DNA of 64,000 nt, from sequence record PV714129.1; one strand, 5' to 3'. The notes beneath the pieces were generated by a model. It saw nothing but the letters and a program-made list of their open reading frames with translations, was not told where the DNA came from and searched no databases. Source of the DNA: Escherichia phage Mizar. Numbering within the stretch: position 1 is the first letter of the stretch; each line of letters opens with the position of its first letter. Of this stretch, positions 2,526-3,626 are shown in pieces. A program made the position numbers and the translations under genes.

Positions 2526-3626
2526 TTACGCTGTGAAGATTTTATCCCACATCGCAACAACCGCATCTCGGTTATACTTCTTCCATACTGCTTCAGCACG
2601 TTTAACTCGAGCTTCGTATGTGTCAGTGAATTCTAATACAGCTTTTGTGTAAAGCGCAACTACTTCTTTCTTAGGAGTAGAGGAATCAATTTCTACACGC
2701 ACAGTATCTGGGTCATATTCGAATGTCGCGTGCGGATAATCCTTAAAAACTAACTGAATCACAGGGACACCTTTAGAGATGGCTTCAATAGAACTATTCT
2801 CTACCGTACCCGTGTCAGGACACGTATTGATAAGTGCTTTAGCTGTTTTAAGACGTTCCATGATTTCACTGTGTGGAGCATCAATAATAACAGGATACTT
2901 AGCTGGTGGTGCCCATTTACTAGGACAATAACCAATACCATTTTCGCCTAGTGCTTTAATCGCTTCAAGAGCAACATCAGTACGACGCATTTTAGTGTCA
3001 TAACGTTGTGCACTAATAATCAGATCAGTCGCCGGAAGAACTTCAGGTTTCTCATTCAAACAAATAACCGGATAATCTTCGGCTTCAAACAACGGATTTG
3101 CTCGCCAATAATCATAATCAATTTTGTCAGTCAGACCTGAAGTCATATAACAATATTTGCGTTCAAATTCACGGAAGGCTTTAGTAGGAGCATAACTCTT
3201 ACCACCATTCTTATGAATTTGAATAGTCTGGTCCCAAATTTGAACAATGCCACGAGATACCGGTTCAAATGGTGTTGCCATAAAATTCTTATGAACTTTA
3301 GAGAGACCCGCGTCTTTAATTGCCTGAACGGTTAGTTTAGTCGGTTCCATAGTAACAACAAAATCGTATTCATGGATGCCGGCTAGTTCAACAATCTTAC
3401 GAGCCATAGTATAACTCATACCTAGACTGAATTTAGTCAGATGACCAACAGGATGATGATTAACCTTCCAATCACCAAACGTGTCATTATCAAAGCCGAT
3501 ATAATCAATATCAGCACCGATGGACACAAGATATTTCAACACATTTAAATGTACTGCTTCAAGACCACCTTGTACACGTTCTGGGTTAAATGGGACTGCG
3601 CGAGATGGGATAAACATAACTTTCAT
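2526..3626 (-). CDS. GT-B-like glycosyltransferase, candidate DNA (hmC) glycosyl/arabinosyl transferase
   Basis: 366 aa; N-terminus MKVMFIPSRAVPF...GGLEAVHLNV resembles the N-terminal Rossmann half of GT-B family-4 glycosyltransferases; sits between rIIA.1 and gene 39 where T4 carries gene 60/mobA. Confidence 0.55.
   Translation of the reverse strand: MKVMFIPSRAVPFNPERVQGGLEAVHLNVLKYLVSIGADIDYIGFDNDTFGDWKVNHHPVGHLTKFSLGMSYTMARKIVELAGIHEYDFVVTMEPTKLTVQAIKDAGLSKVHKNFMATPFEPVSRGIVQIWDQTIQIHKNGGKSYAPTKAFREFERKYCYMTSGLTDKIDYDYWRANPLFEAEDYPVICLNEKPEVLPATDLIISAQRYDTKMRRTDVALEAIKALGENGIGYCPSKWAPPAKYPVIIDAPHSEIMERLKTAKALINTCPDTGTVENSSIEAISKGVPVIQLVFKDYPHATFEYDPDTVRVEIDSSTPKKEVVALYTKAVLEFTDTYEARVKRAEAVWKKYNRDAVVAMWDKIFTA

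Follow-up and report, generated by a model that had tools for sequence, protein, structure and literature searches.

A single-copy ORF003c-type GT-B glycosyltransferase of Escherichia phage Mizar and its proposed role in DNA arabinosylation

The α- and β-glucosyltransferases of phage T4 adopt the glycosyltransferase B (GT-B) fold, use a uridine diphosphate (UDP) sugar as donor, and act after replication on modified cytosine in DNA as a means of counter-defence. The β-α-glucosyltransferase of the T6/T2 type extends the first DNA-bound sugar to a disaccharide, which gives gentiobiosyl-5-hydroxymethylcytosine. The T4 enzymes resemble in these respects the protein considered here, which is encoded by an open reading frame (ORF) of 366 codons in Escherichia phage Mizar (sequence record PV714129.1), within a stretch of 64,000 nucleotides that was analysed as a whole and is referred to as the window. 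This ORF is the Mosigvirus ortholog of RB69 ORF003c (gp3), and its product is a soluble, UDP-binding GT-B glycosyltransferase of two domains, the fold and the UDP binding being known via a solved ortholog. In contrast, the T4 glucosyltransferases have no detectable sequence similarity to the 366-residue protein, their genes lie at a different genomic position, and they place glucose on 5-hydroxymethylcytosine (hmC), whereas arabinofuranose (Araf) and 5-hydroxycytosine are the sugar and the base here and the acceptor is probably a sugar and not the base. The T6/T2 enzyme offers a functional analogy with the addition of a second sugar, but it is an unrelated protein that differs in both sugar and linkage.

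The gene is already known, as it has been named, an ortholog has been crystallised, and a role has been proposed by others. Thomas et al. 2018 put forward ORF003c as the RB69 arabinosyltransferase by means of hidden Markov model (HMM) and HHpred searches (PMC6024577). RB69 gp3 was later proposed to be 'beta-arabinosyltransferase 2' (PMC13326640, NAR 2026), and the same assignment is made in PMC13390438 (2026). The 366-residue gene is not a new lead, and related questions are already under study by others. Arabinosylated 5-hydroxycytosine protects the DNA of Mosigvirus and related phages against restriction enzymes, type I CRISPR-Cas, and DNA glycosylases, and is relevant to phage therapy and phage engineering. 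The present analysis serves to correct the annotation of the window: it has two unrelated GT-B transferases, 5-hydroxycytosine in place of hmC, and a 366-residue gene product that is probably a chain extender.

Identity and fold of the 366-residue protein

At equal length (366 residues), the protein shares 99.2% identity with RB69 ORF003c (gp3, NP_861693.1). Its identity to the 'phage HY126 glycosyltransferase' is 98%, and structures of the latter are available in the PDB as the apo form (9iqz) and with UDP (9ir0), both released on 2025-07-16. The substitutions between the HY126 and window proteins, read off the alignment, are E16D, N56T, Y159H, G163A, I230V, and S315F. The RB69 and HY126 proteins match the window ORF in length and in their place between rIIA.1 and gene 39, and the few substitutions that set them apart from it suggest no functional difference. 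At the DNA level, the ORF locus is 95-99% identical to 153 of the 163 matching phage records, all of them Mosigvirus or RB69-like.

PHROG 8302, a family of 'unknown function', is matched end to end (1-366/366, E=4e-223). In scans of the ORF, Pfam returned no family even at E<=10, NCBIfam returned none, and PADLOC gave no match; the family assignment is therefore based on PHROGs, the PDB, and fold searches. The family is very narrow, with 5 clusters in a database of 5.8 billion proteins. Its profile retrieved only 12 representatives from 1.84 billion proteins, of which the two weakest (E about 1e-4) are Pfam glycosyltransferase family 4 (GT4) or group 1 proteins, and a search of PDB sequences with the same profile reached the ortholog alone.

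The solved ortholog has two Rossmann-like domains with a cleft between them, as is typical of GT-B enzymes. It was used for the fold in place of the AlphaFold2 (AF2) model of the 366-residue protein, which was built on a shallow alignment of 5 sequences and reached a predicted local distance difference test (pLDDT) score of 64, with residues 115-187 below 50 and a template modelling (TM) score of 0.54 to the crystal structure. UDP as the bound nucleotide is taken from the title of entry 9ir0, 'phage HY126 glycosyltransferase with UDP', which is a database look-up and not an assay. The next-best structural matches after the ortholog are the GT-B/GT4-type enzymes PimA, BshA, MshA-like, and WaaG. 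These bacterial enzymes (PimA, MshA, BshA, and WaaG) share 8-16% identity with the 366-residue protein, which differs from them in having no Pfam GT4 match, a C-terminal E276-NSSI-E281 motif of the form E-x4-E in place of the canonical E-x7-E, and DNA as its proposed acceptor.

A preliminary description of the locus had named the ORF a GT-B glycosyltransferase, and the apo and UDP-bound structures of the 98%-identical protein bear this out. It had also spoken of a 'family-4-like N-terminus'; Pfam detects no such domain, yet the depositors of 9iqz use the same name for the HY126 protein. The residues that are invariant in the family alignment are G20, G21, R208, E276, and E281. G20, R207, and E281 of ORF003c were aligned by Thomas et al. 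2018 with nucleotide-sugar-binding residues of the T4 α-glucosyltransferase (PMC6024577), and the residues proposed for nucleotide-sugar binding (Gly-20, Arg-207/208, and Glu-281) are all present in the window protein.

Chain length and the proposed second arabinose

A tblastn search with the 366-residue protein found 211 phage records, which comprise Mosigvirus-type phages of Escherichia and Shigella and T4-like phages of Acinetobacter. Each Mosigvirus-type record has one copy with at least 95% identity, and each of the 55 Acinetobacter records has two adjacent copies with about 43% identity. In Acinetobacter phage DLP1, the two homologs (DLP1_075/074) are 43% and 40% identical to the 366-residue protein over the full length and stand in tandem at the end of a cluster with the order isomerase, pyrophosphorylase, HAD, ThyA homolog, 314-residue glycosyltransferase, kinase, homolog 1, and homolog 2. 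This order matches that of DLP3 gp83 to gp76 in PMC13326640, and since DLP1 is closely related to DLP3, gp76 and gp77 of DLP3 are regarded as ORF003c-family paralogs. Both DLP3 proteins ('beta-arabinosyltransferase 2/3' for gp77/gp76) have the invariant G20/G21, R208, E276, and E281 of the family. They are tandem paralogs within the cluster that jointly build a third sugar, whereas the window has a single copy outside the cluster and belongs to a phage group with chains of at most two sugars. The functional tie of the 366-residue ORF to the sugar-nucleotide cluster, which the preliminary description had drawn, is upheld by these homologs that sit within the cluster in Acinetobacter phages.

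A few records depart from this general distribution. One record labelled Tegunavirus bears a match to the ORF003c family, and two 'Yersinia' phage records match the 366-residue ORF locus at the DNA level. This suggests that the gene is also present in, or has been exchanged with, phages beyond those of Escherichia and Shigella hosts. In two Mosigvirus records, PP434429.1 (LH01) and OR544955.1 (EP32B), the ORF003c ortholog is in two pieces that are annotated as two hypothetical proteins; either frameshifts from sequencing errors or natural knockouts of the gene would account for this.

The number of family copies (0, 1, and 2) tracks the length of the arabinose chain (1, 2, and 3 sugars). Thanatos DNA has one sugar, and its genome has a glycosyltransferase of the cluster type only, with no ORF003c-family copy (PMC13326640). 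Mosigvirus DNA (RB69, NP, and Bas46/47) contains mono- plus di-arabinose (PMC13326640, PMC13390438, PMC12923530); Bas46 and Bas47 are doubly arabinosylated (PMC12923530), and RB69 DNA has β-D-Araf-(1-3)-α-D-Araf on 5-hydroxycytosine (PMC13326640). DLP3 DNA has three arabinoses, and in vitro, purified DLP3 gp76 and gp77 together use UDP-Araf to extend the chains on RB69 DNA by a third Araf (PMC13326640).

Besides the 366-residue protein, the window encodes a GT-B protein of 299 residues. Its AF2 model (pLDDT 94.3) has the GT-B fold, and Foldseek matches it to MshA, WbnH, HepE, and UDP-GlcNAc 2-epimerases; Pfam gives no match to it, and no sequence similarity between the 299- and 366-residue proteins was found. 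The 299-residue gene is the next one downstream of the gene-42 homolog, in the slot of β-glucosyltransferase in T4, and the window thus has two glycosyltransferase candidates, with the T4 slot filled by an enzyme that is not of T4 type. It is present in 348 phage records from many genera, including phages of Klebsiella, Serratia, Enterobacter, Proteus, and Yersinia and further Escherichia phages. In RB69, ORFs 46 and 47 form one glycosyltransferase gene, the proposed arabinosyltransferase 1 (PMC13326640). For attachment of the first sugar, the 299-residue protein is the stronger candidate, and it is found in all arabinosylating T4-like phages. The preliminary description had held the 366-residue ORF to be the best candidate for the enzyme that joins the pentose to the base, which is probably not the case given the position of the 299-residue protein, its 348 records, and its published candidacy for the first sugar.

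Because copy number tracks chain length, paralogs extend arabinosylated DNA, and the other glycosyltransferase is universal in the pathway, the most likely role of the 366-residue enzyme is in the second step, and we consider it probable that it adds a second arabinofuranose from UDP-Araf to DNA-bound α-Araf-O5-cytosine. Chain extension has been shown in vitro for the paralogs; what we infer is that the second step falls to this enzyme, and which linkage it makes. In the proposed pathway, the gene-42-like flavin enzyme would make 5-hydroxydeoxycytidine, which replaces deoxycytidine, and the cluster at 23.7-30.3 kb would make UDP-arabinofuranose. The 299-residue GT-B protein of the cluster would attach the first (α) arabinose to the 5-hydroxyl, and the ORF003c-type enzyme would then add a second, β-1,3-linked arabinofuranose to that sugar on DNA. 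The product would be di-arabinosyl-5-hydroxycytosine, dominant in Mosigvirus DNA, and would shield it against DNA-targeting defences.

Some points weigh against this second-step role. The assignment of gp3 in PMC13326640 is explicitly a proposal. No single DLP3 transferase, the presumed first one included, was active on 5-hydroxycytosine DNA in that study, and the first step is for this reason also unproven there. Moreover, the closest structural neighbours of the 366-residue protein are mostly retaining GT4 enzymes, whereas the proposed product is β-linked. A β second and an α first linkage made from the same UDP-Araf donor would require that one of the two GT-B enzymes inverts. A tentative extension of the second-step role is that the 366-residue protein is an inverting enzyme, a furanosyltransferase with a GT4-like scaffold, that acts on the DNA-bound sugar, and that the phage might use the separate location of the gene to adjust how much mono- relative to di-arabinose it carries, as a counter-defence layer in its own right.

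The PDB, which has an entry for the 366-residue ortholog, has no match for the 299-residue protein, and this choice of target for crystallography would suit a primary DNA arabinosyltransferase that transfers the first arabinose directly onto the modified cytosine, as held by the preliminary description and by Thomas et al. 2018. The 2018 proposal came from HMM/HHpred matches to T4 α-glucosyltransferase and other GT-B enzymes (PMC6024577), and the inactivity in vitro of the presumed first transferase (PMC13326640) points the same way. Even so, a primary role is unlikely, as the family is missing from most phages that have the rest of the pathway (211 against 348 records), mono-arabinosylated Thanatos carries the cluster-type enzyme alone, and the Acinetobacter paralogs extend DNA that is already arabinosylated (PMC13326640). 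The 2018 proposal is also older than the recognition of RB69 ORFs 46 and 47 as one glycosyltransferase gene (PMC13326640).

The joint requirement for DLP3 gp76 and gp77 in adding the third sugar, each alone being inactive (PMC13326640), raises the alternative that the 366-residue protein has no independent activity and is a partner of the other glycosyltransferase, in a heteromeric or strictly sequential manner, or that it both initiates and extends the chain. We regard this as improbable, since Mosigvirus has a single family member, the other glycosyltransferase is encoded about 20 kb away and is unrelated in sequence, and the HY126 ortholog, which binds UDP, was crystallised on its own. On the other hand, the enzymes closest in structure to the 366-residue protein act on lipids, thiols, lipopolysaccharides, and polysaccharides, and the Mosigvirus gene lies outside the modification cluster, which would suit an acceptor other than DNA, such as a host envelope glycan, a protein, or a small molecule, with no relation to DNA modification. 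This was considered and rejected as very improbable, because all family members come from T4-like phages whose DNA is poly-arabinosylated, and the Acinetobacter homologs are within the cluster and active on DNA in vitro (PMC13326640).

The sugar-nucleotide cluster and the modified base

The sugar-nucleotide cluster of the window spans about 23.7-30.3 kb and is bounded by uvsX (22454..23626) and the DNA polymerase gene (30314..33025); its members are listed in Table 1. The preliminary description had associated the ORF with such a cluster about 25 kb away, and the cluster is indeed found, at a distance of 20-27 kb. The 389-residue peptidase-U32-like protein in the middle of the cluster is absent from the DLP1 cluster, and its role in the literature is a tentative 'sugar or heterocycle reductase'.

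With T4 gp42, the gene-42 homolog shares only 25% identity. It carries D169N and N177D in E. coli ThyA numbering, whereas T4 gp42 keeps Asp at 169. The numbering agrees with the residues in PMC13326640, where D169N is the signature of 5-hydroxy-dCMP (deoxycytidine monophosphate) synthases. The low identity and D169N speak against a gp42-type hydroxymethylase that would provide hmC as acceptor. Because of the D169N signature, the acceptor base is taken to be 5-hydroxycytosine and not hmC, which is also the modified base reported for this phage group (PMC13326640, PMC13390438). Judged from the sequence, the phage DNA should contain derivatives of 5-hydroxycytosine and not hmC. The pentose on hmC of the preliminary description is accordingly not upheld, and the role that it gave to the 366-residue ORF is probably wrong on both acceptor and base.

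The absence of T4-type glucosyltransferases, which had been stated earlier, is confirmed by tblastn of the T4 α- and β-glucosyltransferases against the window (best E=1.9), with no match at the 366-residue ORF. The slot of the α-enzyme, between gene 47 (ORF 38647..39693) and gene 55 (40837..41394), contains only short ORFs, none longer than 107 residues. The interval between uvsX and gene 42 does hold other genes, as described, but one of them is the 299-residue GT-B protein, which had been missed. A tblastn search of the whole window with the T4 Dam methyltransferase found no homolog (best E=2.1); T4 dam lies between genes 56 and 61, and the counterpart region of the window is 15600..17500.

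Genomic neighbourhood and hairpins

In T4, genes 60, 60.1, and mobA are located between rIIA.1 and gene 39. T4 gp39 aligns to the gene 39 ORF of the window with 79% identity, and residues 27-159 of T4 gp60 map to 4070..3672, within the same ORF, with 87% identity. As the gp60 part aligns inside the gene 39 ORF, the topoisomerase large subunit is unsplit, and the 366-residue ORF therefore occupies the 60/60.1/mobA slot of T4. These alignments and the flanking genes confirm the placement given in the preliminary description, and the place between rIIA.1 and gene 39 is kept across Mosigvirus. In gene 39 of the window, the gene 60 part is fused in frame, without mobA, 60.1, or the translational-bypass region.

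Table 1. Features of the window around the 366-residue ORF and in the sugar-nucleotide cluster
Feature	Coordinates	Strand	Basis or remark
rIIA	7..2220		flank of the 366-residue ORF
rIIA.1, downstream neighbour of the 366-residue ORF	2233..2433	-	T4 rIIA.1, 71% identity
ORF003c-type GT-B glycosyltransferase, 366 residues, proposed DNA β-arabinofuranosyltransferase 2	2526..3626	-	ATG start; PHROG 8302, RB69, and PDB matches
C(UUCG)G hairpin, AAGCUCC-UUCG-GGAGCUU, 7-bp stem followed by a U-rich tract, terminator-like	3653..3670	-	overlaps gene 39 stop codon
Unsplit topoisomerase II large subunit, gene 39, 605 residues, upstream neighbour of the 366-residue ORF	3669..5486	-	
Nucleotide-kinase-like protein, RB69 gp45 equivalent	23725..24273	-	weak dTMP-kinase P-loop match; same neighbour in DLP1 cluster
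Second GT-B glycosyltransferase, 299 residues, RB69 gp46:47 ortholog, candidate first (α) arabinosyltransferase	24275..25174	-	AF2, Foldseek, PMC13326640
Thymidylate-synthase homolog at gene 42 position, predicted 5-hydroxy-dCMP synthase	25174..25890	-	Pfam Thymidylat_synt
Peptidase-U32-like protein, 389 residues, RB69 gp50 equivalent	26169..27338	-	Pfam Peptidase_U32, E=7e-11
HAD-type phosphatase, AfhF / RB69 gp51 equivalent	27385..27786	-	NCBIfam EcbF-BcbF capsule biosynthesis phosphatase, E=4e-13; role from PMC13326640
Bifunctional NTP-transferase/kinase, AfhE / RB69 gp52:53 equivalent, makes UDP-Araf	27771..29456	-	Pfam NTP_transferase (N-terminal), kinase-like matches (C-terminal); role from PMC13326640
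SIS-domain arabinose-5-phosphate isomerase, RB69 gp55 equivalent	29638..30273	-	Pfam SIS; role from PMC13326640

The annotation of phage SA79RD, a related genome, marks the hairpin at the end of gene 39 as a rho-independent terminator. Terminator-like sites are frequent in the region 2100..5700 (7 found, against a mean of 1.9 in shuffled sequences), and the fold of the 71-nucleotide region around the hairpin is not unusual as a whole (z=-0.85). No T4-type early, middle, or late promoter motif is present upstream of the 366-residue ORF in the 42-nucleotide gap to its ATG, and the sole 'middle' promoter match nearby spans the start codon. Matches to sigma-70-like promoters in the region are not enriched (9 against a shuffle mean of 12.5). 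An independent promoter for the ORF was dropped from consideration, as the gap holds no motif and the sigma-70-like matches do not exceed the shuffles. Thus, the hairpin after gene 39 that the preliminary description reported is present, but the separate expression control attached to it is not supported, there being no promoter motif and an equivalent hairpin upstream of gene 39. The two C(UUCG)G hairpins, the one listed in Table 1 and the upstream one at 5536..5551, bracket gene 39, and UUCG hairpins of this kind seem to punctuate this early transcription unit in general.
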